Notes: generated from the letters alone by a model not told the origin. 37,487 nt of DNA from Candidatus Iainarchaeum sp. (GCA_043820655.1 JBDRDO010000092.1:1-37487), one strand, 5' to 3'. Shown: positions 9,956 to 23,589, counted from the first letter of the stretch. Numbers and translations are program-made.

Positions 9956-10435
9956 ATGCGCGCCGCAGTCCCAAAATGTAAAAACAGCAAAGGCCAGATG
10001 TCCCTTGAATACATGGTAATGAGCGCATTCCTTTTGCTTATAGTCGGCCTGCTCTTCACTTACGCTTACATAAATTATGACCACGCAATGAAGCTTGACA
10101 TGGCAAATTATGCTGTTGATTCCATTGCCGAGGCCGCAGACCAGGCATACGCACTCGGCACAGGCACTGTGCTTTTTGTTGATATAATCCTCCCCAATGG
10201 AATTGAGGGGAGCAGCGTTTTCGGCAAGGAATTCCAAGGGGGAAACGAGGTGCAGTACACCCTCAACATAATGGGCGTGCAGAACACGATTTTTGCCAAG
10301 ACAATCGCCGAACTTGATTCAGAAAACTCGGTGCTTCCTTACACAGGCATAAGCCACAAGATGAGGATAAGCATGGGGGACTGCGTGGACGGCAAGGTCA
10401 CAATTCTGGAAGTGGGGGAGGAATGCCCGCCTTAA
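9956..10435 (+). CDS. pilin-like protein with class III signal peptide (minor pilin 1)
   Basis: ATG at 9956: MRAAVPKCKNSKG|QMSLEYMVMSAFLLLIVGLLF. This gives basic residue, Gly, Gln and Glu at +5, followed by a hydrophobic helix. Confidence 0.75.
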   Translation: MRAAVPKCKNSKGQMSLEYMVMSAFLLLIVGLLFTYAYINYDHAMKLDMANYAVDSIAEAADQAYALGTGTVLFVDIILPNGIEGSSVFGKEFQGGNEVQYTLNIMGVQNTIFAKTIAELDSENSVLPYTGISHKMRISMGDCVDGKVTILEVGEECPP

Positions 10436-10444
10436 TAATTGCAT

Positions 10445-10876
10445 ATGGTGATATGGTGGAAAAAGGCAGAGTTACAATCTTGGAAGCCGGGGGTGAGTGA
10501 ATTGCGTGCGCAGGCATCTGTTGAAATAGTGATGGCAGTTGCCCTGATTATAATGCTTTTCCTAATGGTGCTGTGGTTTGTGAATGCAAGGGAAGGGGAT
10601 GTGCAGTTTGTTGAACAGCAGTATGACAACCAGCGCGCCTGCGGCAAGCTTTCATCAATAATCTCCTCTGCCTATGCGGCACGCTCCGGCACAGTGCTGA
10701 CAGCAACAATAGACCGCGATGCCAAAATAATTGGCAACAACATTCACATAGGCAAGGAGAGCAATTACTCCTGCACGTTTGTTGGCAGTGCGCAGGAAAA
10801 TCTTGAACTAAAGGCCGGCGGAATAAAGGCACGCAATGTCGGCGGTACGGTTATTGTGGAGAATCTGGGGGAGTGA
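10445..10876 (+). CDS. pilin-like protein with class III signal peptide (minor pilin 2)
   Basis: ...SELRA|QASVEIVMAVALIIMLFLMVLWF. The start is ambiguous (TTG 10439 or ATG 10445). Confidence 0.65.
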   Translation: MVIWWKKAELQSWKPGVSELRAQASVEIVMAVALIIMLFLMVLWFVNAREGDVQFVEQQYDNQRACGKLSSIISSAYAARSGTVLTATIDRDAKIIGNNIHIGKESNYSCTFVGSAQENLELKAGGIKARNVGGTVIVENLGE

Positions 10877-10880
10877 TGGC

Positions 10881-11429
10881 TTGCTTTGCAAAAAAGGGCA
10901 GGTAACGGCGCTTGATTTCATGTTCGGGCTTTTTCTGTTCCTTTTCATCGCCGCTTGGCTGTTTTCAATATGGTCGAGCAATTTAGGAGTTGCAATAACC
11001 GAACAGGGCTTTGAGCAAATGCGCGGAAAGGCATTCCAGGCGATGGATGTGCTTGTCCGCACAGGCGGAACCCCCCCTGACTGGGAAGGCGGCGCAGAGG
11101 GCGGCTGGGGGGATGGAGAAATGGACGGCATTGTTTCACTGGGGCTTGCATCCAAGGACCGTGTTATGATGCCTGACAAGCTTTCCGCATTTATCCTTGC
11201 GGGAGACCCGTCACTTAACGATATGCGCGATTACAACAGGACAAAGGTGATATTCGGCATTATGCAGTACGATTACTTCTTTAAATTGAAAACCCTTGAC
11301 CCTGTGCAAACATTTGAAACAGGACTGGCGCCTGGCGCAGCCGCAACAGCCGTCGCAGTAGAGCGCACTGTAATGTATGAGGGGGGTGAGGCAATTGCAA
11401 CGTTCACGATCCACTATGAGTTTGACTAG
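10881..11429 (+). CDS. pilin-like protein with class III signal peptide (minor pilin 3)
   Basis: A TTG at 10881, preceded by GGGGGAG with a 7-nt spacer, gives (M)LCKKG|QVTALDFMFGLFLFLFIAAWLF. The ORF-track start (ATG 10836) would add 15 aa and overlap the previous gene by 41 nt. Confidence 0.65.
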   Translation: MLCKKGQVTALDFMFGLFLFLFIAAWLFSIWSSNLGVAITEQGFEQMRGKAFQAMDVLVRTGGTPPDWEGGAEGGWGDGEMDGIVSLGLASKDRVMMPDKLSAFILAGDPSLNDMRDYNRTKVIFGIMQYDYFFKLKTLDPVQTFETGLAPGAAATAVAVERTVMYEGGEAIATFTIHYEFD

Positions 11430-13683
11430 CTCGGGATTTGCGCTTTCCCTTGATGCCCTGCTCGCGCTTGCGCTTGTCATAGGGATTCTAACATTTGGCA
11501 GGCTGATGGTGTTTGACAGCCAGAGCACAGGCAATATAAGCCAGCTGCAGACCCTCCAGCGCGGGGATGATGTATTCACAACCCTCTACAACTCAGGTTT
11601 CCTTCTTGACAAGCTTGACAGCAGCGGCTTTTATGACTCTACAGCGGAGGAGATACGCCTGAAAATGCAGGAAATGCTCCCGAGCAATATGGATTTTAAG
11701 ATTGCAATACGCAGTTACGGCGTTGACTTTGAGCAGTGCAAAGTGGGCCAGACATTTGATGATTGTTTCCCCGATACAGACATAATAACCGCGGGGGGTG
11801 CTCCGTCAAATGATGCGGAAGTGCTGCACGGCAGGCGCATGTTTGTCAAGGAAGAGCCGCCAGGGGAGTGTGATACTGAAAATTATTCTTCAGGCATAAG
11901 TCCGTTGCGCCGCCCAGGCATATTATCCTTCGCCGGGGAGGGTGATGAAATGTCCCTGAGCGTTGATATTGATTATGACGGTTATGGCAATGACGAAGAC
12001 CTTGAATGTGATGAGGATGTCTCGGTAACCCTTGGCATTACCGCCAACGGCCCGGGTGAAAGGGACCCTGTTGATGTAATGATTGTAATGGACCGTTCGG
12101 GAAGCATGGGTGATTACACTATGTTCGACATGAATGTCCTCACTGGGCAGTTCGGCGGCAGCGGCACAAGCAACTGCTCGTGCTGGTCCAACTGGTTCTG
12201 CACATATGGCTTGTTCGGCTGCCAGTGGGAATATTACAACTGGGAGGAGCTCGGTACTTTTGTTATAGAGAGTGAGGACTCATTCACGGCATCCTTAAAG
12301 TACAGCGGAGCCAGTGGCAGCCCGCCCCCCGCGCTGAAGCTCATAAGCCCGTCCGATGTTGAATATGGCGGTACAGGCCCCGATGTTGAAATAGATTATC
12401 CTGCGGAAACAGGCATCTGGACTGCATGGGGGTGGAGTGATGAAGAAATAGACTACAATGTGAGCAAGTACTTCAAGAAGCTTGACGTAGCGAAGGACGG
12501 CTCGCAGTATTTCGTTGACCTTGCGGAATGGCAGAATCAGGACCAATTAGGCCTTGTCTCCTTCAACCAAAGTGCAACACTTGACGAGCCGCTTACAAAT
12601 GATTTTGACGCGGTTAAGGATGCGATAGAGGCAATGAATGAAGGCGGCAACACCGCAACAGGCGACGGAATTTATGAAGCAACGGGCGAACTCATTAACG
12701 GAACAAACGCAAACCCCGATGCAATGAAATTCCAGGTTCTGCTCGGGGACGGCAAGTCGAACACCGGCAGCTCATCATCCTCCGCCGCACAGAATGCCGC
12801 TGACAACGGCATAATAATATACACAATCGGCTTCGGCGAGGATGTGAAGGATGACGGGGGTGAGGCGGAACTTAAAATGATTGCCGAAACAACCGGCGGC
12901 GAATACTATTACGCCGAGGACGAGGACGCACTGAAAGCTTTTTATGAGCTAATTTCGCAGCAAATAGGCACAAGTGCCGCAGGCGGGAATCCGATGGACA
13001 ATGTTGTTGTCACATTGCCGGTCCCGACCGGAATGATAGTAATAGACGAGGGGCAGGACGGTTACTTCCTGGATGGCGTGGGCGATGATGATAATTTCCT
13101 AATATTCACGCTGGGCGACTTTGATTACTATGAGGAATGGGCAGACACATATGTGGCGGTTTTCCCCTGCTCAAACAACGAGAACTGCGAAATAGCGGAG
13201 AAAACATTCCCTTCAGAGGGCAGTACAATAGAATACACGGATAAGGATGATACCGACCAGTCCGCGCCCTGGGATGTGACAGTAACAGTTAACTTCCTCT
13301 ATCGCGACCTCACTGTTGAAATAATAAAAGGCACAATAATCGGCAAAAATGAGGTCTACCTTGATGTTAACGCACAGAACATAGGTTTTCTTGACACCGG
13401 CGGGACAACCATCGAGTTCTACCTTGACTATTCCGGGGGAGATGGCGAGTTCCTTGGGAGTGTTGATGTTGATGCCTTTTGCGGCGGTGCGGGCGAGAAC
13501 TGCGAGGACAACTTCCAGATTTTCTATGATGTATATTTAAATAAGGAAGGCCTTATTTCTGCAATAATAAATGAGGGCATGGAAATCGGGGATTGCCCTA
13601 ATAATAATGAAGATAAAATAAATTGCACCGACGGGGCGGAGACCCAGTACTTTACCTTTGACTATTGGATGTGGTTTAAATGA
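11416..13683 (+). CDS. large pilin-like protein with vWA domain (intact MIDAS)
   Basis: ATG at 11416: MSLTSSG|FALSLDALLALALVIGILTF. The vWA MIDAS residues are DRSGS (12091..12105), GGNTATGDG and LLGDGKSN. Confidence 0.8.
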   Translation: MSLTSSGFALSLDALLALALVIGILTFGRLMVFDSQSTGNISQLQTLQRGDDVFTTLYNSGFLLDKLDSSGFYDSTAEEIRLKMQEMLPSNMDFKIAIRSYGVDFEQCKVGQTFDDCFPDTDIITAGGAPSNDAEVLHGRRMFVKEEPPGECDTENYSSGISPLRRPGILSFAGEGDEMSLSVDIDYDGYGNDEDLECDEDVSVTLGITANGPGERDPVDVMIVMDRSGSMGDYTMFDMNVLTGQFGGSGTSNCSCWSNWFCTYGLFGCQWEYYNWEELGTFVIESEDSFTASLKYSGASGSPPPALKLISPSDVEYGGTGPDVEIDYPAETGIWTAWGWSDEEIDYNVSKYFKKLDVAKDGSQYFVDLAEWQNQDQLGLVSFNQSATLDEPLTNDFDAVKDAIEAMNEGGNTATGDGIYEATGELINGTNANPDAMKFQVLLGDGKSNTGSSSSSAAQNAADNGIIIYTIGFGEDVKDDGGEAELKMIAETTGGEYYYAEDEDALKAFYELISQQIGTSAAGGNPMDNVVVTLPVPTGMIVIDEGQDGYFLDGVGDDDNFLIFTLGDFDYYEEWADTYVAVFPCSNNENCEIAEKTFPSEGSTIEYTDKDDTDQSAPWDVTVTVNFLYRDLTVEIIKGTIIGKNEVYLDVNAQNIGFLDTGGTTIEFYLDYSGGDGEFLGSVDVDAFCGGAGENCEDNFQIFYDVYLNKEGLISAIINEGMEIGDCPNNNEDKINCTDGAETQYFTFDYWMWFK

Positions 13684-16073
13684 ATTCGGCAAACAGGGCT
13701 GGAAAGGGCGCACATACACAGCGCGGCTTCACAATCTCGCTTGACGCCGTGTTTGCCCTCCTTATTGTTATTACATTCATAGGCTTCGGCAGGGTTGTGC
13801 TCTTTGAAACGCAGGGCACCGATACCCTTGCAAAACTGCAGGCAATCCAGCGCGCGGACGACGTATTCACAACAATGATAAACACCGGGAGCATTTGGGA
13901 ATCGCTGGATGAACCGGGCCTTACTACCGGCTCTATAGAGGATATATATGATAAGATGGATGCACAGCTCCCTGAAAATATTGACTTTATGATTACGATG
14001 CGCCTCTATGATTCAACAATCGATGCTGAATGCAGGTCTCAAAAGACATTTGAGAAATGTTTCTCCCCCTCTACATTGAACAAAAGCTGGCCTGAGATTA
14101 GTAAAAAGCCCACGCATGGAGACATATTGCACGGCAGGCGCGTGTTTGTAAAGAAGCAGCCGGAGCCGGATTGTACATATTGCGGCAATGGGGTGTGTGA
14201 TGATGACGAGGGCGAGAACTGCTCCACCTGCTCAGGAGACTGCCTTCCTACTGGTCTTGAGTGCTGTCTCGGCATTGTTTGCGCATTTGGTGAGACATGC
14301 GTTGATGATGTTTGCACGCCGCCGGGCGGCTTTGCCCCAGCAACATTCCCCTTTTTGGGCAGCAGTAAAATCGCGCACCTTGAGGGCGAGGGCATGAACC
14401 TTTTGCTCAGAACGGAACTTGCCCCGGAATACTCCCCCGCGGATGAGCTTGACTGCGATGAAACAGAGAACGTGCACCTTGAAATCGAGGCAAGCGCGGG
14501 AGAAGGGAGGGCGCCTGCGGACATAATGATGCTCCTCGACCGCGGCGAATTCATGGGCAGGTTTTTAGTGAAGGACTCTTTAATAAACATATCCCATTAC
14601 TGTCGTGACACGTGGGAGGTTGCAGGCACATTCTACAATGCGGATTTCCGTTCTTTCCAGATAGTTCCGGACGACCCCGCAATAGCGTTCCGCCTGACCG
14701 ACCCGAGTTCCGAAACGCACCTAGTTAATGAGGGCACTTTTATGAAGCCGACAGATATCGGCATCTGGACCGTGGAGTGCAGGAAAACAGGGGGCGGCAA
14801 GACAGTCAACTTTTCAAAATATTACCGGAACATAGAGGCGGAGCAGCACAGTGCAGTGGATTTTTTGAGCACAGCCAGCCTCAAGGAGCCGGACCAGGCG
14901 GGGCTTGTCACCTTCGGCACTGACGTAACCCTTGACGCCCAGCTCACGACGGATGAGGATGCGGTAATAACCGAAATCTGGGCAATTCCTATGCCCCCCG
15001 GCGGGGGGACGAACATTGCCGGCGCCATGAACATGGCTGTTGACGAGTTCAACACGCGCGGCGGCGAGGGGTATGTGCGGGTTGCAATACTTATGAGTGA
15101 TGCGGCGGCGGAGAAGGGGGATGTGGACGGGGCAATCGCAAACGCCGTGGCAAACAATGTTGTCTTTTACACGATTGCCGTGGGGGAGGGGTCTGATGAG
15201 GGCGCTTTGCAGGAAATCGCGCTCGGCACGAGCGGGGAGTTCTGGAAGATAACCGACACCGACACGCTCGATACTGTTTACGCCCTCATTGACATAGAGA
15301 TTGTGGAGCTCACAATCAACGGGAACAGGGTAGACAATCCGATTCTCTATATACCGATTCCCGCGGGGCAGACAGTTCTTACGCACCCGGATGCGGAAAT
15401 AGTCGAAGAACCTGGCTGCACGCACTGCCTCAAATACTCTAGCCTTGAGAGTCTCACGGTCGGGGAAATATGGGAGGCCGATTACTCAGTTGAATTCCCC
15501 TGCTCCGACCAGCACAGCTGCGAGAAGGCTGTGCAGGGCTTTCCCGAGGAAGGCACATTTATAGAATATATTGACATAGAGGAAAATCCCGGCAGGCTTG
15601 ACTGGCCGACGGAAGGGCCGCCCGAATACCGGGTTGTTGATTTCGACTCAAGGGACCTTAAGATTGAGTTCCTCGGCGGAAAGGTTATTGCGCCAAACCA
15701 GATTTATATGAATTTAGTGGTGGAGAACATAGACGACCTTGACACTGTGCCGACAGATGTGGTGTTTTCAAGGGGCGACACAATAGAGGGCGGCGGCGAG
15801 GAGGTGGGAAGCGCCCCGCTTGTTGCAGTGCCCGGCCTCTGCGGCCCGTTGAACCCGCCATGCAGTGACGGTCCGCAGTACTATTATGATGTTTACCTCC
15901 CCGCGGATGGCCGGATTTGGGCGCAGTTCGCGCTGGAGGATGGGGAATTGGTGAATGAGGAATGCCCGAAATACAGCCTTGCCATGCTGGATTGCTCTGT
16001 CGGACCGAGGGTGCAGTATTACACCCTGGAGTGGTGGCTGTGGCCTGCTTCGGAAACAACGGGGGGTAGTTAA
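13680..16073 (+). CDS. large pilin-like protein with vWA-like domain (degenerate MIDAS) and a Cys-rich insert
   Basis: MNSANRAGKGAHTQRG|FTISLDAVFALLIVITFIGF. It is a paralog of the previous gene (QAIQRADDVFTT vs QTLQRGDDVFTT; LHGRRVFVKK vs LHGRRMFVKE). DRGEF (14538..14552) replaces DxSxS. The start overlaps the upstream stop (ATGA). Confidence 0.8.
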   Translation: MNSANRAGKGAHTQRGFTISLDAVFALLIVITFIGFGRVVLFETQGTDTLAKLQAIQRADDVFTTMINTGSIWESLDEPGLTTGSIEDIYDKMDAQLPENIDFMITMRLYDSTIDAECRSQKTFEKCFSPSTLNKSWPEISKKPTHGDILHGRRVFVKKQPEPDCTYCGNGVCDDDEGENCSTCSGDCLPTGLECCLGIVCAFGETCVDDVCTPPGGFAPATFPFLGSSKIAHLEGEGMNLLLRTELAPEYSPADELDCDETENVHLEIEASAGEGRAPADIMMLLDRGEFMGRFLVKDSLINISHYCRDTWEVAGTFYNADFRSFQIVPDDPAIAFRLTDPSSETHLVNEGTFMKPTDIGIWTVECRKTGGGKTVNFSKYYRNIEAEQHSAVDFLSTASLKEPDQAGLVTFGTDVTLDAQLTTDEDAVITEIWAIPMPPGGGTNIAGAMNMAVDEFNTRGGEGYVRVAILMSDAAAEKGDVDGAIANAVANNVVFYTIAVGEGSDEGALQEIALGTSGEFWKITDTDTLDTVYALIDIEIVELTINGNRVDNPILYIPIPAGQTVLTHPDAEIVEEPGCTHCLKYSSLESLTVGEIWEADYSVEFPCSDQHSCEKAVQGFPEEGTFIEYIDIEENPGRLDWPTEGPPEYRVVDFDSRDLKIEFLGGKVIAPNQIYMNLVVENIDDLDTVPTDVVFSRGDTIEGGGEEVGSAPLVAVPGLCGPLNPPCSDGPQYYYDVYLPADGRIWAQFALEDGELVNEECPKYSLAMLDCSVGPRVQYYTLEWWLWPASETTGGS

Positions 16074-16074
16074 A

Positions 16075-17190
16075 TTGAACCATAATGGTGTGCTTTTTGC
16101 GTTCATGGCATTTCTGCTTGTGATGGTTGTGCTGAGCCTTGGCACAACAATAAGGGAGCAGAGAATGGAGCTTGAGGACAGCATAACATCAACCTCCGCG
16201 ATTGTGGGGGTTAGCGGCAAGTTCAACAACATAATTAATGATGTTGTTGCGTTTGACAAGAACAACTTTGTGAAGGATATACAGAAGCGCATCCTGCCGT
16301 TCAACTACTCCATTGACTATGACTTGATAAGGGTGCATCAGGAACTGCCTGTGAAAAGCGCGTATATAAGTAATTACTTTGATGTGATTAATATATACTC
16401 TATTTTCGTGGAGGATGAAAATCCCGAAACAACATATGACCTGATGGTTGTCGACACAAACACGCTCATTAACACAGACTGGCCGCCTCAGGGAAAACCG
16501 CCCCCGTCACAGCCCGATAATCCTCAGTTCATGATCTGGCCGCAGTGCCTGAAGCTTGTTATTGAGGCTGATGAAATAGGCGGCGTAATCCAGGATTCCA
16601 CATACTGGCGTTTCGAGCCGGGTCTTCCCCCCGACCCTAATAAACCCACTGAGGGCTGTGCATCCGCCTTTGACTCAGGCAGTGTTGACAGGTATGATGT
16701 CAACATGTCGTTAATGCAATATAAGGAGTACTACAACACTATTGAGTGTGAGTTCTTCGGCTGTCAGGCACCATGCGCCTGCCCCACTGCCGCATACGGC
16801 TACGGCACAGGCCTGCCCTACTTCAAGCTGACGATTGATGATTCGCGGTGCCAGCCAAATTGCAAGCTTGGCGGGCAGGCAACATTAGTAAGCAGCCACT
16901 ACGATCCGACAAAAGAAAACAGTGTGACAATATCCTGCGAAGCAGACCTCCTGACTCCGAATTGCTATGCAACCACGCCGATTACAATTGTGTTTGGCAA
17001 CGACACTGCCTATAATCCAAACAAGAACGATGTGTTCAGGATCGGCAACTCGGGCGGCACGGTTGACGTGGATATGAACGTGACCTTTGCCAGCCCCGTG
17101 GACCAGTTGCGCTCCATGGATTTCAATGTAAGGGTACACCGTGCGGACTTCAATATAACAATAAAGAATGTTGACGACCCGCCCGCTTAA
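16075..17190 (+). CDS. hypothetical pilus-associated protein with an N-terminal hydrophobic, pilin-like segment
   Basis: An in-frame TTG at 16075, 2 nt after the upstream stop, gives (M)NHNG|VLFAFMAFLLVMVVLSLG. The ORF-track start at 15955 lies inside the previous gene. The mature part is Cys-rich (ECEFFGCQAPCACP, CQPNC). Confidence 0.6.
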   Translation: MNHNGVLFAFMAFLLVMVVLSLGTTIREQRMELEDSITSTSAIVGVSGKFNNIINDVVAFDKNNFVKDIQKRILPFNYSIDYDLIRVHQELPVKSAYISNYFDVINIYSIFVEDENPETTYDLMVVDTNTLINTDWPPQGKPPPSQPDNPQFMIWPQCLKLVIEADEIGGVIQDSTYWRFEPGLPPDPNKPTEGCASAFDSGSVDRYDVNMSLMQYKEYYNTIECEFFGCQAPCACPTAAYGYGTGLPYFKLTIDDSRCQPNCKLGGQATLVSSHYDPTKENSVTISCEADLLTPNCYATTPITIVFGNDTAYNPNKNDVFRIGNSGGTVDVDMNVTFASPVDQLRSMDFNVRVHRADFNITIKNVDDPPA

Positions 17191-17334
17191 GGGGGCTGGT
17201 GCGGGGCAGGGTTGCCGCGCACAAACAGTGCGCCGCAAAACAGGCGGTCATTATACATTATTATTCCTATTAATGAACAATAATAAGTTATAAAAAGCAG
17301 AACATGTATATTGTATTGAAAATTTGCTTTTTAT

Positions 17335-19590
17335 ATGGTGAATATAATGGATGAAAAAAAGAAAGTTGAAACAAAGAAGCCCGAAAAAAAGAAGCGCGGA
17401 ATCAGGCAGTTCCTGCGCGGGCTTTTCCGGTTCATTGGCAGGAAAGAGGAGAAGGCGCTTAAGGAAACACTGCCAACCAAACCAGTGGCAAGACCGCGCA
17501 AAAAGGAGGTAAGCCTTGCAAAGCAGCTCCGCCTCTGGAGAAAAAGGTCCGAGGAGCTTACAAAGCGCGTGAGGGTTTTGGAAAGGCAGCTCAGGAAGAG
17601 CGAGATTGCGCCAAGGCAGGCGCTTGGAGGGGTGCGTGTTGTTTACGCAACCGCGGGGCATGAGGACATTAACCTTGACAAGGAAATAAGGAAAACAAAA
17701 TCCCTTATGAAGCTGATGGAAATCGATTATCACAAGATGCGCGCCACGCCCGAACAGTTCAGGACAAAAATGCTGGAGTACAGGGAACGCATGCATCTCC
17801 TCCAGCTTGAAAAGGATGAGCTTGCGCGCGAGGGCATGAAAATTAGGCATGTTGGGGGCAAGATAAAGGAGATCGCGCTTAAGTCGCCAGAGGGCGGGCC
17901 CGAGATTGTTCAGGAGTTTGAACAGAGCATTAAAGCCCTGCCGCTTGAATGGAGTTCGGATTCCGGTGCTGAGCTTGCCGAAGTCGCATCAACAAGTGCA
18001 ATGCCACGCAGTGCAGGGGCAGTTCCTGCGAAACCCGGGAAAATGCCCCGTGCGAAAAAGGGCACGGGGAAATTTGTGGAAAGCCGCGCGCGCAAGGCAA
18101 GTGCGGTGAAAAAGCAGGCGGTTAAAATTAAGCCTATGGCAAAGCCGAAGCAAATGGCGCAAATGGCAAGGGCACTGCGGAAGCCCGTGCCTGTGCGGCA
18201 GACGCCGGTGCAGGCAAAGGCAAAACCCGCACTCAAAAAGCCATTGCCCGCACAGCCAAAACCCCTGCCGCAGAAGGCGGCACAGGCGCCAAGGAAGCCG
18301 TTCCCCGTGCCCGCAACGGAGCAGGCACCAGTGCCTGTCAGGATTGTCGAGTCAAAGCCGGCGGCTGTAAAGCCTGTGCCTGCCAAACCCGAACCCGCAA
18401 AGCCAAAACTGGAAAAACCGGCCGTGCCCTTAACTAAGCCCGGACTGCAGGCAGTCTCAAAACCGAAGACTGAACCGCCAGTGCTGGAAAAGCAGGAGAT
18501 TCCAAATGGTGGGCTGTCAAAAGGAATACTTTCAAAGATAAAATCCGCCACAATGTTGAAACCCGTGCGGAAGCCGGTGCCACTCCCGCCAAAACCTGCA
18601 CAACAGAAGCCCATATTGCCCAAGCCAAAGTCTCCGCCGCAGAAGCCCGCCATGCAGGCTGTAAAGAAATTCGAGGTTAAGGCTGAAAATGTTGTTGTTA
18701 AGGGCAAGGACGAGCCCGTGACCAAACCTGCGCAAGACCCTGACTCTAAGGATCACTCCTTTAAAATAATGAGCCAGCGCGAAAAAATTGCGCAGTGGGC
18801 CGAGGAAAGGCGCGCCAGGCTTAATCAGGATCGTGAAAAGCAGAAGCGCATTGCGGGGAATCTTGATGAAGGGACTGAGGAGCATGATGCTGCCCCTGCA
18901 ACGCCTGCCAAGGCAGACACTGTGCAGGAACCGCTTCCCAAACAGGGTGAGGCGCAGGAAAAAACAGGCAATTTACGCAGCCTTTTCAAGGGCAAGCCTG
19001 CAAATAAATCCGAGGAGGAGAGAATTGCCGGGCTTGAGGAAAGGATGACGGCTCTTATGCAAAAGCACAATGTTTCCAGCAATGAAGTGAAGCGCGAGGC
19101 AATGGCAATTGACGCACCTTCAGTTGTAGGGAGCTTCAACAAGCTTATAGGCCTGCTTGAATCCAAATATGAGGGAACCTCGGGGGGAATGTACAGAGGC
19201 GGGCGCGGAGGCGGGGCAGGCAGGGAATCCCTTCCAAATACAACTTCACTTGGGATGGACGCTATGCTGAAGAGGCAGGCAGCGGAAACCGCAACCCCCA
19301 CTGACTTAAAGAAAAAACGCATAGTTACGGACTTTGACAGGACACTTTCACTTGTAACCGAACGGGAGAAGATAAGAATCAGCGAGATTGCCTCGGAGCT
19401 TAATATTTCCTCCGGCAGGGTTGAGGAGTGCTGTGATATACTTGAACGCGGAAATTTAATCGAGATTCACTATCCCGCAATAGGCAAGCCCTATGTGCAG
19501 GTTGCAAATTATGCCGAACTCAGGGCCGCGCAGAAGGAACAAGAGAAGGATGCAAAGCCAAAAAAGAAGGGGGCTGGCAAGAATGTCTGA
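17335..19590 (+). CDS. Lys/Pro-rich low-complexity protein with N-terminal coiled coil, RGG stretch and C-terminal winged-helix domain
   Basis: 751 aa, with ATG at 17335 or 17347. About 250 aa are KPxP-type low complexity (KPVPVRQTPVQAKAKPALKKPLPAQPKPLPQK...), followed by GGMYRGGRGGGAGRE. The C-terminus reads RISEIASELNISSGRVEECCDILERGNLIEIHYP (HTH plus wing). I see no TM segment. Confidence 0.75.
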   Translation: MVNIMDEKKKVETKKPEKKKRGIRQFLRGLFRFIGRKEEKALKETLPTKPVARPRKKEVSLAKQLRLWRKRSEELTKRVRVLERQLRKSEIAPRQALGGVRVVYATAGHEDINLDKEIRKTKSLMKLMEIDYHKMRATPEQFRTKMLEYRERMHLLQLEKDELAREGMKIRHVGGKIKEIALKSPEGGPEIVQEFEQSIKALPLEWSSDSGAELAEVASTSAMPRSAGAVPAKPGKMPRAKKGTGKFVESRARKASAVKKQAVKIKPMAKPKQMAQMARALRKPVPVRQTPVQAKAKPALKKPLPAQPKPLPQKAAQAPRKPFPVPATEQAPVPVRIVESKPAAVKPVPAKPEPAKPKLEKPAVPLTKPGLQAVSKPKTEPPVLEKQEIPNGGLSKGILSKIKSATMLKPVRKPVPLPPKPAQQKPILPKPKSPPQKPAMQAVKKFEVKAENVVVKGKDEPVTKPAQDPDSKDHSFKIMSQREKIAQWAEERRARLNQDREKQKRIAGNLDEGTEEHDAAPATPAKADTVQEPLPKQGEAQEKTGNLRSLFKGKPANKSEEERIAGLEERMTALMQKHNVSSNEVKREAMAIDAPSVVGSFNKLIGLLESKYEGTSGGMYRGGRGGGAGRESLPNTTSLGMDAMLKRQAAETATPTDLKKKRIVTDFDRTLSLVTEREKIRISEIASELNISSGRVEECCDILERGNLIEIHYPAIGKPYVQVANYAELRAAQKEQEKDAKPKKKGAGKNV

Positions 19591-21094
19591 CAAACTGCTT
19601 AAGGAATACGAGCTTGAGTCCGAGGGCGTGAACCTGAAGATAAGCATTGTTCATGTGGAGGGCGAGTTTGTACGGAGTTACTTAGTGGATATTCCCGAAT
19701 TCGGGCCCGGCACAGAGGCCCTGCTGAAAAACCTGAAAAGCACGCTTGTGACCGACACATCAATAAAAACCGAGAAGATGCTTGATTCGCGCTTCATAGG
19801 TTCTCTGAAAACCGCGTTCAAGGCACGCGCGGGGAAAATACTTGAAAAGGAACTGCCGAATGTTGACGAGCGCACAAAGGAACTGCTTATTGGAATGCTC
19901 CTGCATGAAATGCTGGGCCTTGGCAGGATGGAATTCCTGCTTGCGGACGGCAACCTTGAAGAAGTAGTTGTGAATTCCTCAACAGAGCCTGCATGGGTAT
20001 ACCACAAGGAATTCGGCTGGCTGCGCACTAATGTCATTATAAGCAATGAAAGCGAAATACAGAATTTTGCAAGCATAATCGCAAGGCGCGTTGGCAAGCA
20101 GATAACTGTCCTGCACCCGCTCCTAGATGCCCACCTTATCTCAGGGGACCGTGCAAACGCCACATTATTCCCGATTTCAGGCCGCGGCAACACGCTTACA
20201 ATAAGGCGCTTCAGGCGCGAGCCATGGACTGTTGTTGATTTCATAACCAATAACACCGCAACCCCCGAGCTTATGGCATTGCTCTGGACTGCAATACAGT
20301 ATGAGCTTAATGTTATTGTAAGCGGAGGCACTGCCTCGGGAAAAACATCTTTCCTGAATGTGCTGATGCCCTTTATACAGCCCAATCACAGGATTGTAAG
20401 TATTGAGGACACCCGCGAGCTTTCCCTGCCCAAATTCCTGCACTGGGTGCCGATGACTACCAGGGAGCCCAATCCCGAGGGGCAGGGAGGGGTAAGCATG
20501 CTTGATTTGCTTATTAACTCGCTCAGGATGCGCCCTGACAGGATAATTGTCGGGGAGATAAGGCGGCAGAAAGAAGCCGAGGTAATGTTTGAGGCAATGC
20601 ACACAGGCCACAGCACCTACACAACTGTGCACGCAAACACAGCGGATGAAACAATAAGGCGTCTGATAAACCCGCCTATTGAAATTCCCGCAACCATGCT
20701 TGAGGCAACGCACATAAATGTTGTTATGTTCAGGAACAGGCGCCTCGGGTTAAGGAGGATTTTGCAGCTTGCGGAATTCATTCCCGAAAGGCGTTCGGAA
20801 TCCGAGGAAGTAATTAAGGCAAATGTTCTCTATCGTTGGAAGCCTGCAAGTGACCTTATTGAAAAGCACGCCGACAGCATCAGGCTTTTTGATGAGCTTT
20901 CCATGCACACAGGCATGACAATGAGCGAGATTTCACAGGACATGAAAAGCAAGAAGGGAATACTTGAGTGGCTTGTAAAGCACAAAATACGCGGCGTTAA
21001 CGATGTCGGGCTTATTATGGCAAAATATTATAGTGACAAGGAAGATATTCTGAAATTGGTTAAGCAGGACAAGAAACCGGATTTCGTGAGATAA
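19583..21094 (+). CDS. type IV pilus/archaellum-family secretion ATPase (FlaI/TadA/VirB11 superfamily)
   Basis: The ATG at 19583 overlaps the upstream stop (ATGTCTGA). Walker A is GGTASGKT (20324..20347), Walker B is PDRIIVGEIR, and the His box is TGHSTYTTVHAN. Confidence 0.93.
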   Translation: MSDKLLKEYELESEGVNLKISIVHVEGEFVRSYLVDIPEFGPGTEALLKNLKSTLVTDTSIKTEKMLDSRFIGSLKTAFKARAGKILEKELPNVDERTKELLIGMLLHEMLGLGRMEFLLADGNLEEVVVNSSTEPAWVYHKEFGWLRTNVIISNESEIQNFASIIARRVGKQITVLHPLLDAHLISGDRANATLFPISGRGNTLTIRRFRREPWTVVDFITNNTATPELMALLWTAIQYELNVIVSGGTASGKTSFLNVLMPFIQPNHRIVSIEDTRELSLPKFLHWVPMTTREPNPEGQGGVSMLDLLINSLRMRPDRIIVGEIRRQKEAEVMFEAMHTGHSTYTTVHANTADETIRRLINPPIEIPATMLEATHINVVMFRNRRLGLRRILQLAEFIPERRSESEEVIKANVLYRWKPASDLIEKHADSIRLFDELSMHTGMTMSEISQDMKSKKGILEWLVKHKIRGVNDVGLIMAKYYSDKEDILKLVKQDKKPDFVR

Positions 21095-21984
21095 TGGAGA
21101 AGCTGTCCATACCATTCAGCCCGTTTCCAGTGCCATTGCTGCTGATAGTGTCGGCACACCTTAAAGGCGTAGGGGAATCGATTTCAAGGGCATTTCCCTA
21201 CATTAAAATAGAGCTTAATCAGGCGGAAATCCCGATAAGCGCAAACGAATACGGCGCAATAATGGGATTTCTCTCGTTTTTTTATTTTGTTTTTGTTACA
21301 GCCTCTGTTTATTTCATAGGCTCGGTTTTCTTCCCCGAGAATGCGCTCATTGCCGCCCCGACAATCGGCGGGCTTTTCGCAATAATGATACTTGCGCAGT
21401 TGAGCGTATTCCCCAAAATAAAGGTGAAACGCAAGGTGCGCGACATTGAACGCAACCTAATTTTCGGTCTCAGGACCCTGCTTGTTGAGATAAAATCCGG
21501 CGTAACCCTTTTTGATGCAATAAACGTTGTAGCAGACGGCCACTACGGCGCGGTAAGCACGGAGTTTAGCAGGGCAATAGAAAGCATCAATACCGGCACA
21601 ACCGAAGAAGTCGCGCTTGAGGAAATAGCATCCCGCAACCCCTCATTGTTTTTCAGGCGCGCAATGTGGCAGCTCCTCAACGGCATAAAAACCGGCGGGG
21701 ACATAAGCGTTGCAATAACCGCAATGGTTGACTCCCTTGCAAAGGAGCAGAGGAACCAGGTGCGTAAATACGGCTCCTCACTGAGGATGCTGTCCCTTGT
21801 TTATATGATGCTTGGCGTAATAATTCCCGCACTTGGGCTGACATTCCTTGTAATCCTCGGCTCTTTCCCGCAACTTGATATCAGTGAATTAATGTTTTGG
21901 GGCCTGCTCATATTTCTTGTACTCGGGCAGTTTATGTTCCTCGGAATGTTAAAAGCAGGGAGGCCTAACCTTGTTGGGGACTAA
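21094..21984 (+). CDS. pilus platform membrane protein, single T2SS-F domain (TadB/EpdJ-like)
   Basis: The start overlaps the ATPase stop by 1 nt. It is polytopic, with a cytoplasmic helical bundle (LRTLLVEIKSGVTLFDAINVVADG...AMWQLLNGIKTGGDIS) typical of GspF/PilC/FlaJ-type domains. Confidence 0.85.
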   Translation: MEKLSIPFSPFPVPLLLIVSAHLKGVGESISRAFPYIKIELNQAEIPISANEYGAIMGFLSFFYFVFVTASVYFIGSVFFPENALIAAPTIGGLFAIMILAQLSVFPKIKVKRKVRDIERNLIFGLRTLLVEIKSGVTLFDAINVVADGHYGAVSTEFSRAIESINTGTTEEVALEEIASRNPSLFFRRAMWQLLNGIKTGGDISVAITAMVDSLAKEQRNQVRKYGSSLRMLSLVYMMLGVIIPALGLTFLVILGSFPQLDISELMFWGLLIFLVLGQFMFLGMLKAGRPNLVGD

Positions 21985-22978
21985 TTTTTACAGGAAGGTC
22001 GCCTCGTTAATGCCCTCCAAGATAATCCGTGCATTCAAAACAGAGATGGGCTATCTGGGGATAGATATAAGTGAAAGGCGCTTTGTGGGGTTTCTTCTTG
22101 TTTTCGGGCTTGCGCTGAGCGTGGGAATTTCGCTTAACACATACCTCTTTTTCGGCATAAGCTTTATTGTTGCCTTCCCGTTTTTCTTTGTGCTTTTTGT
22201 TGCCGGCACATACCTCTGGCTGAGCATTGCCGCGGAATCAAAGGGCAAGTTTGTTGAGACAATACTTCCCGATGCGCTGCAGCTGATTGCCTCAAACATA
22301 AAGGCTGGCTTAACAACTGAGCGTGCATTGCTTGTTTCCGCAAGGTCTGAATTCGGGCCTTTGGAAATAGAACTGCGCGCAACTGGCAGCAGGATAATGG
22401 CGGGCATGCCTCTTGAACAGGCGCTTTCATACATCCCGACAAAAATAAAATCCAAAACATTGGAGAGGCTTATCTGGCTGATTTCAAAGGGAATTGAAAG
22501 CGGCGGGCAGATTGCGGATTTATTGACGCACCTTGCCGATGATTTAAGGGAGCAGAACAGCATAAAGGACGAAATCGCGGCAAACATTTCCATGTATATT
22601 ATGCTGATATTTTTCTCCGCGGCAATCGGCGCGCCCATGCTGTTCGGAATAAGCAGTTTCATTGTGCAGATTCTTGTGGTTCAGACCTCGCAGATACCGC
22701 AGTTTGATGCATCTATGTTTGAGGGCACCGGGGGCGGCGCCGGCCTTGCCGGGCTTGCGGGAGGTGGTTCGGTAATTTCCGCGGACTTTGTTATATTCTT
22801 CGCAATGGTGAGCATAGTTGTCACATCTATATTTGCCTCGCTCACAATAGGGGTTATAAACACAGGCAAGGAAAAGGGCGGCGCGAAATTCATACCCGTG
22901 CTCCTATCCATCTCATTTGTGCTGTTTTTCGTTATAAGGGAAGTCCTTGCAATGATGTTCGGCAGTTTGCTGATGTAA
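21971..22978 (+). CDS. pilus platform membrane protein, single T2SS-F domain (TadC/EpdK-like)
   Basis: ILPDALQLIASNIKAGLTTERALL...LIWLISKGIESGGQIADLL plus TM segments. The start is either TTG 21971 (14-nt overlap) or ATG 22010. Confidence 0.85.
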   Translation: MLGTNFYRKVASLMPSKIIRAFKTEMGYLGIDISERRFVGFLLVFGLALSVGISLNTYLFFGISFIVAFPFFFVLFVAGTYLWLSIAAESKGKFVETILPDALQLIASNIKAGLTTERALLVSARSEFGPLEIELRATGSRIMAGMPLEQALSYIPTKIKSKTLERLIWLISKGIESGGQIADLLTHLADDLREQNSIKDEIAANISMYIMLIFFSAAIGAPMLFGISSFIVQILVVQTSQIPQFDASMFEGTGGGAGLAGLAGGGSVISADFVIFFAMVSIVVTSIFASLTIGVINTGKEKGGAKFIPVLLSISFVLFFVIREVLAMMFGSLLM

Positions 22979-23089
22979 TGGGAAACCTATTTTCGCACCT
23001 GCGGCGGTTTCAATATTGTACTATATTATTCCCTCTTGCCGCGGGCACATAGTGCGTTTTCCGCACTTAGCCCGAAGGCTGGGGAACCT

Positions 23090-23118
23090 AAAAATAAAAA
23101 AAAGAAAAAGAAAGGAAA
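23090..23118 (-). terminator. oligo-T tract terminator candidate downstream of the major pilin
   Basis: The minus strand reads TTTCCTTTCTTTTTCTTTTTTTTATTTTT, starting ~10 nt after the pilin stop. Archaeal termination typically occurs at oligo-T runs. Confidence 0.55.
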
Positions 23119-23127
23119 GCATCACAC

Positions 23128-23589
23128 TTATGTTGCTGGTGCTGTTCCTTTACAGCTGGCTGACGATTCCTTAGCGAAGCCGTCTGCATCCGTGTATCCG
23201 AATGTGAAGTTGACAGTGTATGCCCCTCCTGCCACAAATGTGTGGTTGGGTGCGACGGTCAGTACGAAATCAGCCTGCACTTCGTCGTTCGCTGGAATGC
23301 TAGAGTATGACTTTGTTTCGGTGAGGTCGCCTGTTGCAGTTATTAGAACTGTTGTCAGGTTCTCGCCTGTCATGTTAGTGAAGATTATTGAGAATATATC
23401 ACCGGTAGCCGTGCCACTAAGGTTCTGCTTCTTAATCGGCAGCTTTGACGCACCTGTGCATCCCTCCGCGCCAATCTGCGTCGGATTAATCAGGAACACC
23501 AGTGCAGCAATCGCAATAACAATCACGATCAAAGCCCAGCCGTAGGTCATCAAATACTCCAGCGCTGATTGTCCTTTATTGCCAAACAT
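23128..23589 (-). CDS. major pilin candidate with class III signal peptide
   Basis: MFGNKG|QSALEYLMTYGWALIVIVIAIAALVFL is a textbook archaeal prepilin N-terminus. It has a GGAGGG RBS, its own TATA box and an oligo-T terminator. There are five N-x-S/T sequons. Confidence 0.9.
   Translation of the reverse strand: MFGNKGQSALEYLMTYGWALIVIVIAIAALVFLINPTQIGAEGCTGASKLPIKKQNLSGTATGDIFSIIFTNMTGENLTTVLITATGDLTETKSYSSIPANDEVQADFVLTVAPNHTFVAGGAYTVNFTFGYTDADGFAKESSASCKGTAPAT

Follow-up and report, generated by a model that had tools for sequence, protein, structure and literature searches.

Several described pilus systems resemble the locus reported here. The Epd pilus of Methanococcus maripaludis was classified as 'clade 1' (Makarova 2016) and as 'System 1' (Sivabalasarma & Albers 2026). 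Its EpdJ, EpdK and EpdL proteins and the bacterial TadA, TadB and TadC, together with the derivation of Tad from Epd-like archaeal pili, were accurately described in the original prediction for this locus (PMC4371748, PMC6668835). A Gln at +1 with a Glu at +5 of the pilin precursor is the signature of EppA substrates and is not present in Sulfolobus or Haloferax pilins (PMC4371748, PMC3875500). Transglutaminase-family peptidases have been reported as linked to clade 1 type IV pilus (T4P) loci (PMC4858521). The presence of two platform genes was taken in the original prediction as the organization of Epd and Tad. It is not diagnostic of either, because two platform genes also occur in many euryarchaeal loci of clade 2 and in subsystems 4A and 4B (PMC4858521, 10.64898/2026.04.22.720090).

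DPANN loci with two platform genes have been filed under the Epd-type System 1 (10.64898/2026.04.22.720090; Mia14, PMC5498576). Loci of the same type as the one described here were published in 2017, 2019 and 2026, and TadB/TadC-like genes were reported in them (PMC6393860, PMC5498576, 10.64898/2026.04.22.720090). Iainarchaeota/Diapherotrites, a DPANN lineage, are usually credited with a rich metabolism and a probably free-living lifestyle (PMC8561730). Modular pilins in which a von Willebrand factor A (VWA) module serves as a tip adhesin are known from a survey of modular pilins that covered bacteria only (PMC8179133).

The locus occupies positions 9956-23589 of a 37,487-nucleotide stretch of DNA (GCA_043820655.1, JBDRDO010000092.1:1-37487), referred to as the window, whose host is an uncultured Iainarchaeota/Diapherotrites archaeon. 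With a probability of roughly 0.85, it is a complete and well-conserved cluster of genes for a non-motility, adhesive type IV pilus; in other words, this Iainarchaeota (DPANN) archaeon would use it to build a non-rotary filament for adhesion. The locus is an instance of a pilus system type already catalogued in DPANN archaea.

Gene organization and class III signals

Seven of the proteins encoded in the locus carry class III (prepilin) signals, and there are genes for a FlaI/TadA-family ATPase and two single-domain platform proteins (Table 1). The six prepilin-like genes g1-g6 make up operon 1, and operon 2 (g7-g10) carries the motor genes. The entire gene order is repeated across Iainarchaeota in ~60 loci of a synteny comparison, and the core, consisting of a winged helix-turn-helix (wHTH) protein, the ATPase and the two platform halves, was also found in Aenigmat-, Woese- and Altiarchaeales.

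Table 1. Features of the locus and its flanks, with positions counted from the first nucleotide of the window (a slash marks the predicted cleavage site)
Feature	Position	Strand	Basis
Transglutaminase-fold, coiled-coil protein, divergent	8867..9817	-	Pfam CEP76-peptidase-like/transglutaminase-like domain
Operon 1 promoter region	9914..9945	+	TATA-like TTTTTATATT and CTATATATAA, direct sequence reading
g1, minor pilin, 146 aa mature	9956..10435	+	Signal MRAAVPKCKNSKG/QMSLEY (KG/QMSLEY), FlaFind-style match
g2, minor pilin	10439..10876	+	Signal RA/QASVEI, Gln+1 and Glu+5, FlaFind-style match
g3, minor pilin	10836/10881..11429	+	Signal KKG/QVTALDF, FlaFind-style match
g4, large modular pilin	11416..13683	+	Leader MSLTSSG/FALSLDA; Pfam VWA 3.8e-19
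g5, full-length g4 paralogue	13680..16073	+	Leader RG/FTISLDA; Pfam VWA 4e-16
g6, pilin-like, 371 aa	16075..17190	+	Leader (M)NHNG/VLFAF; start refined to TTG 16075
144-nt spacer, operon 2 promoter region, AT-rich	17191..17334	+	TATA-like boxes including AAGTTATAAAAAG
g7, cytoplasmic accessory protein or regulator	17335..19590	+	Composition, winged HTH profile
g8, assembly ATPase, FlaI/PilB/TadA superfamily, 503 aa from ATG 19583	19583..21094	+	Pfam T2SSE 1e-34
g9, platform, N-terminal half equivalent, one T2SSF domain	21094..21984	+	Pfam T2SSF 5e-16
g10, platform, C-terminal half equivalent, one T2SSF domain	21971..22978	+	Pfam T2SSF 2e-17
g11 oligo-T terminator	23087..23127	-	ctttcctttctttttcttttttttattttt run immediately after stop codon
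g11, predicted major pilin	23128..23589	-	Signal MFGNKG/QSALEYLMTYGWAL; KG/QSALEY
g11 promoter and ribosome-binding site	23590..23665	-	TATA-like TTTAAATA and TTTATATT, then AAGGAGGG

Most of the genes had been described as overlapping at their start and stop codons. This holds for five of the eight junctions (g3/g4, 14 nt; g4/g5, 4 nt, ATGA; g7/g8, 8 nt; g8/g9, 1 nt; g9/g10, 11-14 nt), whereas the remaining three leave 1-9 nt between genes, given the preferred starts. The TATA-like elements of operon 1 lie 13-40 nt 5' of the g1 ATG, and the spacer before operon 2 carries TATA-like boxes, as anticipated. The gene at 8867-9817 keeps its position and orientation beside g1 in ~25 related loci. 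It is a possible accessory gene, and we only infer its membership of the pilus system. This gene, the VWA domains of g4 and g5, the winged HTH of g7 and the Ig-like head of g11 were absent from the original prediction.

A FlaFind-style rule applied to all six frames of the window gave nine matches. Seven of them were g1-g6 and g11, and the six consecutive plus-strand pilin-like genes proposed earlier were thus all selected. The two extra matches, an antisense ORF within g7 and an internal start in g9, were artefacts. Codon-shuffled control windows (n = 20) gave 0-1 matches each. The signal motifs are under selection because they are kept in every family, with 25-57 orthologues in other genomes per family: [KR][GA]/Q..xEY of g1 in 40, the g2 signal in 25, G/Q....D of g3 in 44, the g4 motif in 37, and [RK]G/[VI][LF]F[TS] of g6 in 39, with leaders of 3-5 aa. 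The proposed check of class III signals came out differently with Pfam, whose Class_IIIsignal model scored g1 at 18.6 bits, under the cutoff of 23.7, and gave no match for the other six (g2-g6 and g11). Gln+1 occurs with Glu+5 in g1, g2 and g11 and with Asp+6 in g3 (four of seven genes), while the +1 residue of g4, g5 and g6 is Phe or Val, not Gln. The start of g2 is uncertain (10439, 10445 or GTG 10493), and that of g3 is either ATG 10836 or TTG 10881.

Where is the prepilin peptidase? As predicted, none was detected in the window: no ORF matched Peptidase_A24, and only g9 and g10 have at least four predicted transmembrane (TM) segments. Nor was one found within 10 kb of the ATPase gene in any of 80 relatives. 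A peptidase would have to be encoded elsewhere in the genome, and prepilin processing is therefore assumed.

Assembly motor and its cytoplasmic partner

The assignment of g8 to the FlaI/TadA family and of g9 and g10 to single-domain platform proteins was borne out by Pfam (Table 1). The Walker A, Asp box, Walker B and His box motifs of g8 are intact, and there is a weak Pfam match to PilB3_C. In the PDB, g8 matched AfGspE (2OAP) with 233 bits, FlaI with 182 and CpaF with 163, and its alignment with AfGspE extends through the C-terminal domain. A neighbor-joining (NJ) tree of ATPases was rooted with TrbB/VirB11, EpdL not being among the references. The DPANN ATPases including g8 formed a monophyletic clade, which joined other archaeal ATPases in 100% and Tad in 0%. 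In unrooted quartets, the DPANN clade was, of the sampled archaeal ATPases, topologically closest to the Tad branch.

These results bear on whether the locus could encode an archaellum, i.e., a rotary motility filament. The best NCBIfam model of g8 is indeed FlaI, and KaiC/ArlH-like ATPase genes are present 9 kb downstream. However, the FlaI score of 268 bits is far under the equivalog cutoff of 550, the KaiC-like proteins reach 19-48 bits against an ArlH cutoff of 215, and no archaellin or ArlC/D/E/F/G/X match was found anywhere in the window. The platform is split whereas ArlJ is not, and the pilins have Gln+1/Glu+5 whereas archaellins do not. The g8 clade also fell outside a clade of FlaI, AfGspE and haloarchaeal ATPases with 100% support, which speaks against membership of the archaellum clade. 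An archaellum is thus extremely improbable, in line with the type IV pilus locus originally predicted.

The platform genes g9 and g10 are paralogues (26% identity). Orthologues of g9 align with residues 34-237 of the 484 of UpsF, while g10 aligns with residues 265-464 of the 465 of ArlJ and 256-439 of UpsF (5/5 orthologues). On an unsplit 701-aa haloarchaeal platform protein, the g9 profile scored 41.0 bits in the N-half and 11.4 in the C-half, and the g10 profile 31.2 bits in the C-half and 8.9 in the N-half. By these alignments, g9 followed by g10 is a collinear split, N-half then C-half, of a two-domain FlaJ/PilC-type archaeal platform.

The first gene of operon 2, g7, is the Lys/Pro-rich protein noted originally (18% Pro, 17% Lys and 14% Ala in residues 200-480). 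It consists of a basic coiled-coil N-terminus, a disordered Pro/Lys/Ala-rich linker and a C-terminal winged HTH (residues ~655-725). The profile of this module (A3) matched the LrpA wHTH in the PDB (6e-5), and matches to HTH_24 (down to 1.4e-8) and TrmB were found in 8/28 orthologues. The wHTH module is invariably encoded directly 5' of the ATPase gene; it is conserved there in ~70 loci, within proteins whose length ranges from 120 to 1000 aa. g7 may regulate transcription of the locus or act as a scaffold docked on the ATPase; an ordinary transcription factor is equally possible.

A winged helix is potentially DNA-binding, Sulfolobales exchange DNA by type IV pili, and for Mia14, also a DPANN archaeon, such a role has been a matter of speculation (PMC5498576). 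Does the locus then build a pilus for DNA exchange or uptake, functionally like Ups, Ced or competence pili? This is very improbable: g7, which lacks both a signal peptide and a TM segment, is cytoplasmic, the locus has no DNA-processing, translocase or nuclease genes, and the tip protein described below resembles protein-binding adhesins.

Predicted filament subunits and a model of assembly

The convergent gene g11 had been singled out as a strongly signalled major pilin, and its signal, TATA-like boxes, GGAGG ribosome-binding site (7 nt before the ATG) and oligo-T terminator agree with this. The mature protein (147 aa) has an N-terminal helix followed by an 8-strand Ig-like sandwich (AF2 pLDDT 90), five N-glycosylation sequons and one conserved Cys pair. 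The segment from Q7 to I23 is almost invariant in 64 sequences. There are 455 homologue clusters, none of them named, and neither a specific PDB neighbour nor a solved archaeal pilin with a specifically similar structure was found. Gene organization, expression signals and family size predict that g11 is the major subunit.

Two of the pilin-like proteins, g4 and g5, are large modular pilins (750-800 aa). Mature g4 (748 aa) begins with a pilin helix and a small head, which are followed by a VWA domain carrying a ~120-aa beta-rich insert and by C-terminal beta-sandwich domains (AF2 pLDDT 81). Its metal-ion (MIDAS) site is intact (D226, S228, S230, T413 and D445), and the MIDAS columns are kept in 19/20 family members. 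The best Foldseek matches were the pilus adhesins PitA, Mfa5, SpaC and RrgA and the VWA minor pilin PilB of Streptococcus sanguinis, a likeness at the level of fold only (10-15% identity). Like PilB, g4 fuses an N-terminal pilin module to a VWA module, and like VWA tip adhesins it has a complete MIDAS flanked by a beta-rich inserted arm. Unlike PilB, it carries an archaeal class III signal in place of the bacterial N-methyl-Phe motif, is far larger and has the extra C-terminal domains. By this analogy, g4 is predicted to be a pilus tip adhesin. The paralogue g5 (30% identity, BLASTP E 2e-97) has an additional Cys-rich insert and a degenerate MIDAS, DRGEF in place of DRSGS, so that g4 alone of the pair has an intact site. 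On the evidence of the synteny table, the duplication is recent and confined to the window and one other locus (L001).

Because six of the seven pilin-like genes resemble low-abundance accessory subunits, and two encode such large proteins, a short pseudopilus or bindosome-like apparatus could be envisaged, in which a short stalk presents VWA proteins or exports substrates and no long fibre is made. Large non-classical archaeal proteins with class III signals do exist, e.g., bindosome substrate-binding proteins (10.64898/2026.04.22.720090). However, the monocistronic g11, with its strong expression signals and very large conserved family, is typical of a major filament subunit; the locus has no substrate-binding-protein or ABC-transporter genes, and the NCBIfam BasE model reached 133 bits against a cutoff of 1000. 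Such a display or secretion device is distinctly unlikely.

How would an adhesive pilus be assembled? The seven precursors would enter the membrane, where a prepilin peptidase encoded elsewhere would cut after the conserved Gly or Ala. The low-abundance g1-g6 proteins would form a priming (tip) complex. g6, which had no match in Pfam or NCBIfam, is a candidate for the first, tip-most subunit by analogy, because acidic residues are missing near its N-terminus (none at +5/+6, the first at +23). The bulky g4 would protrude at the tip, and g5 would be a variant of it or act as its partner. An ATPase hexamer would drive the g9/g10 heterodimer to add g11 subunits beneath this complex. The product would be a glycosylated filament with the invariant QSALEYLMTYGWAL helix as its core and the Ig-like head as its surface. 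Through its metal-ion site, the VWA domain of g4 may bind a protein or a polysaccharide that belongs to a surface, a biofilm matrix or another cell.

The last option leads to the earlier speculation that the same machine is an episymbiont's host-attachment organelle, tethering the DPANN cell to an archaeon or bacterium via g4. The organism is a DPANN archaeon, pili have been proposed or shown to mediate the episymbiosis of other ultra-small lineages (Mia14, PMC5498576; Saccharibacteria, PMC9894109, PMC12206443), and VWA tip adhesins typically bind proteins of other cells (PMC8179133). However, nothing in the sequence indicates the ligand, host association of Iainarchaeota was not found in the literature searched, and the probably free-living lifestyle noted above is accompanied by glycolysis and CoA-biosynthesis genes in the window. 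The speculation proved weak, and host attachment is unlikely.

Comparison with Epd, Tad, System 2 and DPANN pili

The locus was originally labelled 'Epd/Tad-like', which is only partly right. The split platform and the Gln+1 signals stand in its favor; the Tad branch at 0%, the headed major pilin and the lack of a TadZ/MinD- or FlaH-type ATPase in the operon do not. Like Epd, the locus combines one assembly ATPase with a pair of separate platform genes, each with a single T2SSF domain. It also shares with Epd signals that span 5-13 aa and end in Gly or Ala (with Gln+1/Glu+5 in g1, g2 and g11, and Asp+6 in g3), several minor pilins of ~130-180 aa, a major pilin gene apart from the minor ones, and a transglutaminase-family gene close by. 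Unlike Epd, whose EpdE is a headless protein of 62 aa, it has the larger, Ig-headed g11. Cleavage by EppA is not expected for g4, g5 and g6, and neither the locus nor its surroundings contain this 9-TM peptidase. Further differences are the VWA modular pilins, the wHTH/disordered-linker partner and the absence of a FlaH- or MinD-type ATPase from the operon.

Tad/Flp pili (type IVc; TadA/CpaF, TadB, TadC and TadE/F/G) share the order ATPase, platform, platform, the single-domain platform genes, and a VWA-containing member (TadG) among the minor pseudopilins. The g4 VWA weakly matched a bacterial Tad-domain and VWA protein (P0145). However, the locus has no secretin, TadZ, TadD or headless Flp-type pilin of 50-60 aa. 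There is no one-to-one orthology of g9 and g10 to TadB or TadC, and TadB is a C-half and TadC an N-half (PMC6668835), whereas here the N-half gene comes first.

With euryarchaeal clade 2/System 2 pili (Haloferax PilA, PilB3/PilC3; AfGspE), the locus shares its best PDB sequence match, AfGspE, as well as a major pilin with a globular head encoded away from the motor genes, and large adhesin-like proteins. In System 2, in contrast, the platform is a single two-domain gene (e.g., 701 aa in L081), Haloferax pilins do not have Gln+1 and Glu+5 (PMC3875500), and the ATPases belong to the clade from which g8 is excluded.

The known DPANN T4P islands (Makarova et al. 2019, Fig. 2A; MIA14_0170-0177 of Mia14; AR10, Ca. 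Iainarchaeum) were reported at the level of annotation, and VWA modular pilins, an invariant wHTH partner, the collinear N-half/C-half split and an Ig-headed major pilin family were not described in them. They have in common with the window TadB- and TadC-like genes, a FlaI-like ATPase and a number of signal-peptide proteins that lack annotation and were read as pilins, and the AR10 locus (L003) is syntenic with the window.

Layout, conservation and surroundings of the locus

The locus is genuine, complete and strongly conserved, and very probably builds an adhesive type IV pilus in an Iainarchaeota archaeon. An ORF map and domain scans of the window recovered every element that the original prediction had listed. 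Six plus-strand pilin-like genes (g1-g6) and a convergent minus-strand seventh (g11) each encode a short polar leader, Gly/Ala and a hydrophobic helix, as proposed. Most of the genes had been described as joined through overlapping start and stop codons; five of the eight junctions overlap, and the other three are gaps of 1-9 nt. A spacer with a TATA box, also anticipated, separates g6 from g7, and with it operon 1 (g1-g6) from operon 2 (g7-g10). It is 144 nt long, AT-rich and carries TATA-like boxes. Separate expression signals serve the g11 gene, namely TATA-like boxes, a ribosome-binding site with the sequence GGAGG and an oligo-T terminator.

Genes of the pilus locus and their predicted products
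Gene	Coordinates	Strand	Product
g1	9956-10435	plus	class III signal pilin-like
g2	10439-10876	plus	class III signal pilin-like
g3	10836-11429	plus	class III signal pilin-like
g4	11416-13683	plus	class III signal pilin-like
g5	13680-16073	plus	class III signal pilin-like
g6	16075-17190	plus	class III signal pilin-like
g7	17335-19590	plus	Lys/Pro-rich winged-helix protein
g8	19583-21094	plus	ATPase
g9	21094-21984	plus	platform half
g10	21971-22978	plus	platform half
g11	23128-23589	minus, convergent	class III signal pilin-like

An ATPase scan of a genome collection identified the source as Iainarchaeota/Diapherotrites (DPANN). The best ATPase match was JAZDEL010000008 (79% identical); the complete AR10 genome matched at 68%. 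The gene order, consisting of a transglutaminase-like gene (minus), g1-g10, the pilin gene (minus), PPAT and CoaE, is kept in most Iainarchaeota loci. The core of the locus, consisting of the winged-helix (wHTH) module, the ATPase and the two platform genes, was found too in contigs of Aenigmatarchaeota, Woesearchaeota and Altiarchaeales. Housekeeping genes flank the locus (GAPDH, PGK, cupin-type GPI, CoA biosynthesis and PGM), and no tRNA or Rfam RNA genes were found in the window.

The flanking CoA-biosynthesis genes lie at 23737-24933 (minus) and 1847-3151. A bacterial-type dephospho-CoA kinase, CoaE (PF01121, 2e-43), adjoins a PPAT-like cytidylyltransferase. Horizontal acquisition of CoaE in Diapherotrites may have taken place, because archaea usually use another dephospho-CoA kinase. 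Three genes (25213-25932, 26052-26519 and 26617-27087, the products of the last two being weak paralogues) encode small basic proteins in which a single hydrophobic segment lies at the N-terminus. None of them matched a known family or had a homologue in a set of 80 related loci, and the three genes resemble insertions specific to the lineage, placed between CoaE and PGM. Downstream of PGM, 28730-30793 and 30738-32018 encode a pair of large surface proteins that are paralogues (24% identity, E 3.5e-34). Each combines a signal peptide and beta-rich repeats with a TM segment near the C-terminus and a coiled-coil tail in the cytoplasm; the former has an additional Cys-rich N-terminal part. They had no family match and are candidate S-layer or adhesin proteins. 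The pair occupies the same position in five related loci (L003, which is AR10, and L010, L016, L029 and L063).

Further downstream, at 32015-35592 and ~9 kb from the pilus locus, are four single-domain KaiC-like ATPase genes, one of them on the minus strand. Their scores fell far short of the ArlH/FlaH cutoffs. A role of KaiC-family ATPases in regulating archaeal type IV pili (T4P) has been proposed (PMC4858521). On the other side, a minus-strand gene divergent from g1 (8867-9817) encodes a protein that lacks a signal peptide and combines a coiled coil with a transglutaminase fold; the position of the gene is kept in ~25 related loci. Transglutaminase-family peptidases noted earlier beside clade 1 T4P loci were described as surface peptidases, whereas this product looks cytoplasmic. 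A PIN-domain (VapC-like) gene at 6131-6532 (4e-18) and the 182-aa ORF just downstream of it (6593-7141), which had no family match, are a possible toxin-antitoxin pair.

Prepilin signals and pilin subunits

The leaders of the seven pilin-like genes had been expected to be recognized as class III signals. A FlaFind-style rule applied to all six frames of the window returned g1-g6 and g11 plus two obvious artefacts, while codon-shuffled windows (n=20) gave 0-1 matches each. The expectation held under this rule, but the Pfam model Class_IIIsignal (PF04021) matched only g1, below threshold, and left the other six genes without a match.

Motif conservation was read for each family from orthologues in the 80 related genome loci, and each pilin family keeps its own cleavage motif across them. 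With the cleavage site written as a slash, the motifs are [KR][GA]/Q..xEY in g1, /Q.S.E in g2, G/Q....D in g3, [KR][GA]/F[AV][FI]S.DA in g4 and [RK]G/[VI][LF]F[TS] in g6; that of g11, KG/QSALEYLMTYGWAL, is almost invariant. In other words, g1, g2 and g11 have Gln+1/Glu+5, and g3 comes close with Gln+1 and Asp at +6. The g4 and g5 pilins have Phe+1 and Asp+6, and g6 has Val+1 and no acidic residue before +23.

Which peptidase processes these prepilins? The window had been predicted to encode none, and this was upheld: no A24 match was found in it, and its only ORFs with at least four predicted TM segments are g9 and g10. A regex and TM screen of the 10-kb flanks of the 80 related loci found no A24 peptidase near the relatives either, and neither the window nor the flanks screened in related loci contained a dedicated 9-TM EppA. 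Mia14, a DPANN micrarchaeon with a clade 1 ("Methanococci-group") system, has a single FlaK-like peptidase (PMC5498576).

The g4 and g5 pilins are paralogous over their full length (30% identity, E 2e-97), and both contain a VWA domain (Pfam VWA, 3.8e-19 for g4). Their duplication is limited to the window and its closest relative. In the predicted model of g4 (pLDDT 81), a pilin helix of 48 residues and a small head are followed by a VWA domain, which a ~120-aa beta-rich arm breaks up, and by beta-sandwiches at the C-terminus. Its top structural matches were the VWA pilus tip adhesins PitA, Mfa5, SpaC and RrgA, and the Streptococcus sanguinis vWA minor pilin PilB (7b7p, E 1e-9). The MIDAS motif DxSxS...T...D is kept in 19 of 20 family members; g5 is the sole member that has lost both MIDAS serines. 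By analogy with these adhesins, g4 is a probable tip adhesin with a predicted metal-dependent binding site. It has the architecture that defines a modular vWA pilin, namely a class III signal and an alpha-1 helix module fused to a VWA domain with MIDAS. The survey defining such pilins took in bacteria only (PMC8179133), and literature searches found no report of an archaeal VWA protein with a class III signal.

The last pilin-like protein of operon 1, g6, has a leader of 4-5 residues. In bacterial systems, a subunit without a near-N-terminal acidic residue is typically the first, tip-most one.

The g11 protein (153 aa, 147 mature) was modeled as a long N-terminal helix followed by an eight-strand Ig-like sandwich (pLDDT 90), and it carries five N-glycosylation sequons and a conserved Cys pair. 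It had no specific match in the PDB, and Foldseek returned generic helix-plus-Ig matches only (e.g., Kir channels) and no solved archaeal pilin. The family comprises 455 database clusters, all "hypothetical" or unnamed and with no Pfam domain, and is a likely major pilin family. The public gene call of g11 in the window (P0001, 140 aa) begins at Met14 and therefore lacks the class III signal peptide. A dedicated model of this family would better the annotation of DPANN genomes.

The motor and its winged-helix partner

The Lys/Pro-rich protein upstream of the ATPase, g7, has no TM segment; its N-terminus is a basic coiled coil, and a linker rich in Pro, Lys and Ala connects this to a C-terminal module. 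The module is the sole part kept in all loci. The ATPase gene invariably follows it directly, and the proteins that carry it range from 120 to 1000 aa. Its profile matches winged-helix regulators (LrpA at 6e-5), and its members match HTH_24 down to 1.4e-8 and, in 8 of 28, TrmB. Given so short a module and so large a database, the four proteins returned by a homologue search with the wHTH profile are uninformative on its distribution. The protein may regulate transcription or may dock on the ATPase.

The assignment of g8 to the FlaI/TadA family was confirmed (Pfam T2SSE, 1e-34), and its catalytic motifs (Walker A, Asp box, Walker B and His box) are all there. Its best PDB match was the Archaeoglobus GspE-like ATPase AfGspE (2OAP, 233 bits), followed by FlaI (182) and CpaF (163); no clade 1 or clade 4 ATPase structure was among the PDB matches. 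These three PDB proteins served as references in the ATPase phylogeny together with one haloarchaeal, three CpaF, two TrbB and two VirB11 sequences from plasmid records. Archaeal homologues in the plasmid collection were haloarchaeal only, and the trees contain no clade 1 (EpdL) or clade 4 (AapE/UpsE) sequence.

In unrooted quartets, DPANN ATPases lay on the CpaF side, apart from AfGspE and FlaI (86-99% bootstrap). These quartets show exclusion from AfGspE and FlaI only and are not evidence of a sister relation between the DPANN and Tad ATPases. An NJ tree rooted on TrbB/VirB11, a distance tree of few taxa, placed the DPANN sequences in one 100% clade and FlaI, AfGspE and the haloarchaeal sequence in another, with g8 outside the latter and all archaeal sequences monophyletic (100%). 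In this tree the grouping of DPANN with Tad received 0%. The safe conclusion is that g8 is not archaellar and falls outside the crown of clade 2. Among the archaeal lineages sampled, it comes nearest to the Tad branch, though not demonstrably as its sister.

The two single-domain platform genes were borne out as well, with one T2SSF domain each in g9 (5e-16) and g10 (2e-17), which are paralogues. Against two-domain UpsF/ArlJ models, g9 orthologues cover the N-terminal half and g10 orthologues the C-terminal half. The same preference was seen on an unsplit 701-aa haloarchaeal platform: the g9 family profile scored 41.0 bits on the N-half vs 11.4 on the C-half, and the g10 profile 31.2 bits on the C-half vs 8.9 on the N-half. 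This makes the split collinear with the ancestral gene, the outcome expected of a simple fission. One-to-one orthology with TadB and TadC gave no consistent match, as two Tad loci disagreed, and single-sequence PDB searches with g9, g10, g11 and the g7 C-terminus returned nothing informative. A typical System 2 module is present on a haloarchaeal megaplasmid, the Salinibaculum plasmid NZ_CP129994 (L081, 479020-488231), where an ATPase of 833 aa goes with one undivided two-domain platform gene (701 aa) and a type IV pilin gene lies nearby; it served here as a reference only.

Relation to Epd, Tad and other type IV filaments

The locus had been called "Epd/Tad-like". The literature confirms both parts of the background to this name: EpdL occurs with two platform paralogues, EpdJ and EpdK, in M. 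maripaludis (PMC4371748), and Tad has been inferred to derive from an Epd-like archaeal system after platform fission (PMC6668835). As a description of resemblance the name is reasonable, but as a statement of membership it stands only in part.

How close is the locus to Epd (clade 1, System 1)? Epd pilins have leaders of 5-13 aa, Gln+1 and Glu+5 (EppA substrates of the DUF361 type), a combination that is not in Sulfolobus or Haloferax pilins (PMC3875500, PMC4371748). Three pilins of the locus match it exactly and g3 nearly does. The separate single-T2SSF genes g9 and g10 are a likeness to Epd, although not an exclusive one, since many clade 2 loci (PMC4858521) have a split platform too, as do subsystems 4A and 4B (preprint 10.64898/2026.04.22.720090). 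However, EppA needs Gln+1, which g4, g5 and g6 do not have. Furthermore, the Epd major pilin is short and headless (~60-75 aa; EpdE has 74 aa, 62 mature; PMC3875500), whereas g11 bears an Ig-like domain. Finally, the operon has no FlaH/KaiC-like or MinD/TadZ-like secondary ATPase, and g7 fills the site upstream of g8. These points, the wider occurrence of split platforms among them, argue against a strict Epd assignment.

An archaellum, the alternative raised in the original prediction, was rejected: g8 lies outside the FlaI-containing clade of the rooted NJ tree and reached 268 bits against the NCBIfam archaellum FlaI equivalog (cutoff 550), the best ArlH score, that of a downstream KaiC-like protein, was 48 bits (cutoff 215), and no Pfam or NCBIfam match to archaellins, ArlC/D/E or X, F, G or H was found among the scanned window ORFs. 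A bindosome or T2SS-like reading and a DNA-transfer reading were also rejected. Bacterial Tad differs in that its secretin RcpA, TadZ, Flp pilin and TadV were not detected in the locus, and the host is an archaeon.

A minority reading, which we regard as unlikely, is that the locus represents a distinct archaeal T4P lineage, separate from the Epd, Aap/Ups, haloarchaeal and archaellum systems. Three features may mark such a lineage. The core of wHTH protein, ATPase, N-half and C-half may keep an in-place platform fission, a state that could lie near the archaeal stem of Epd and bacterial Tad. The pilins g4 and g5 may, by analogy, be the first archaeal vWA modular type IV pilins, an active- and degenerate-MIDAS pair at a tip that may be primed by g6, which has no Glu5-equivalent acidic residue. 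Lastly, the locus mixes Gln+1 with Phe/Val+1 prepilins, which would imply either a relaxed-specificity peptidase or two peptidases in a reduced genome. If true, a distinct lineage would bear on the origin of Epd and Tad.

Read instead as a conserved DPANN adhesion-pilus locus with Epd/Tad resemblance, the locus overturns nothing. Type IV pili are already on record for DPANN, Epd-type ones with a pair of platform genes among them: one reported island contains TadB, TadC and pilins that lack annotation (PMC6393860), T4P have been noted in AR10 and Ca. Iainarchaeum (PMC8561730), and System 1 carriers include DPANN (preprint 10.64898/2026.04.22.720090). As a reference for the main surface filament of an archaeal phylum that is widespread but uncultured, the locus is clean and has been parsed in full. 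It is of use for DPANN annotation, for searches for DPANN cell-cell and cell-surface attachment, and for refining the Epd-to-Tad scenario, as the split platform used to tie Epd to Tad is here a simple collinear fission. The most useful additions to the known systems are the VWA modular pilins of the predicted tip, the winged-helix protein linked to the ATPase, the collinear fission of the platform and the family of the likely major pilin with its Ig-like head.
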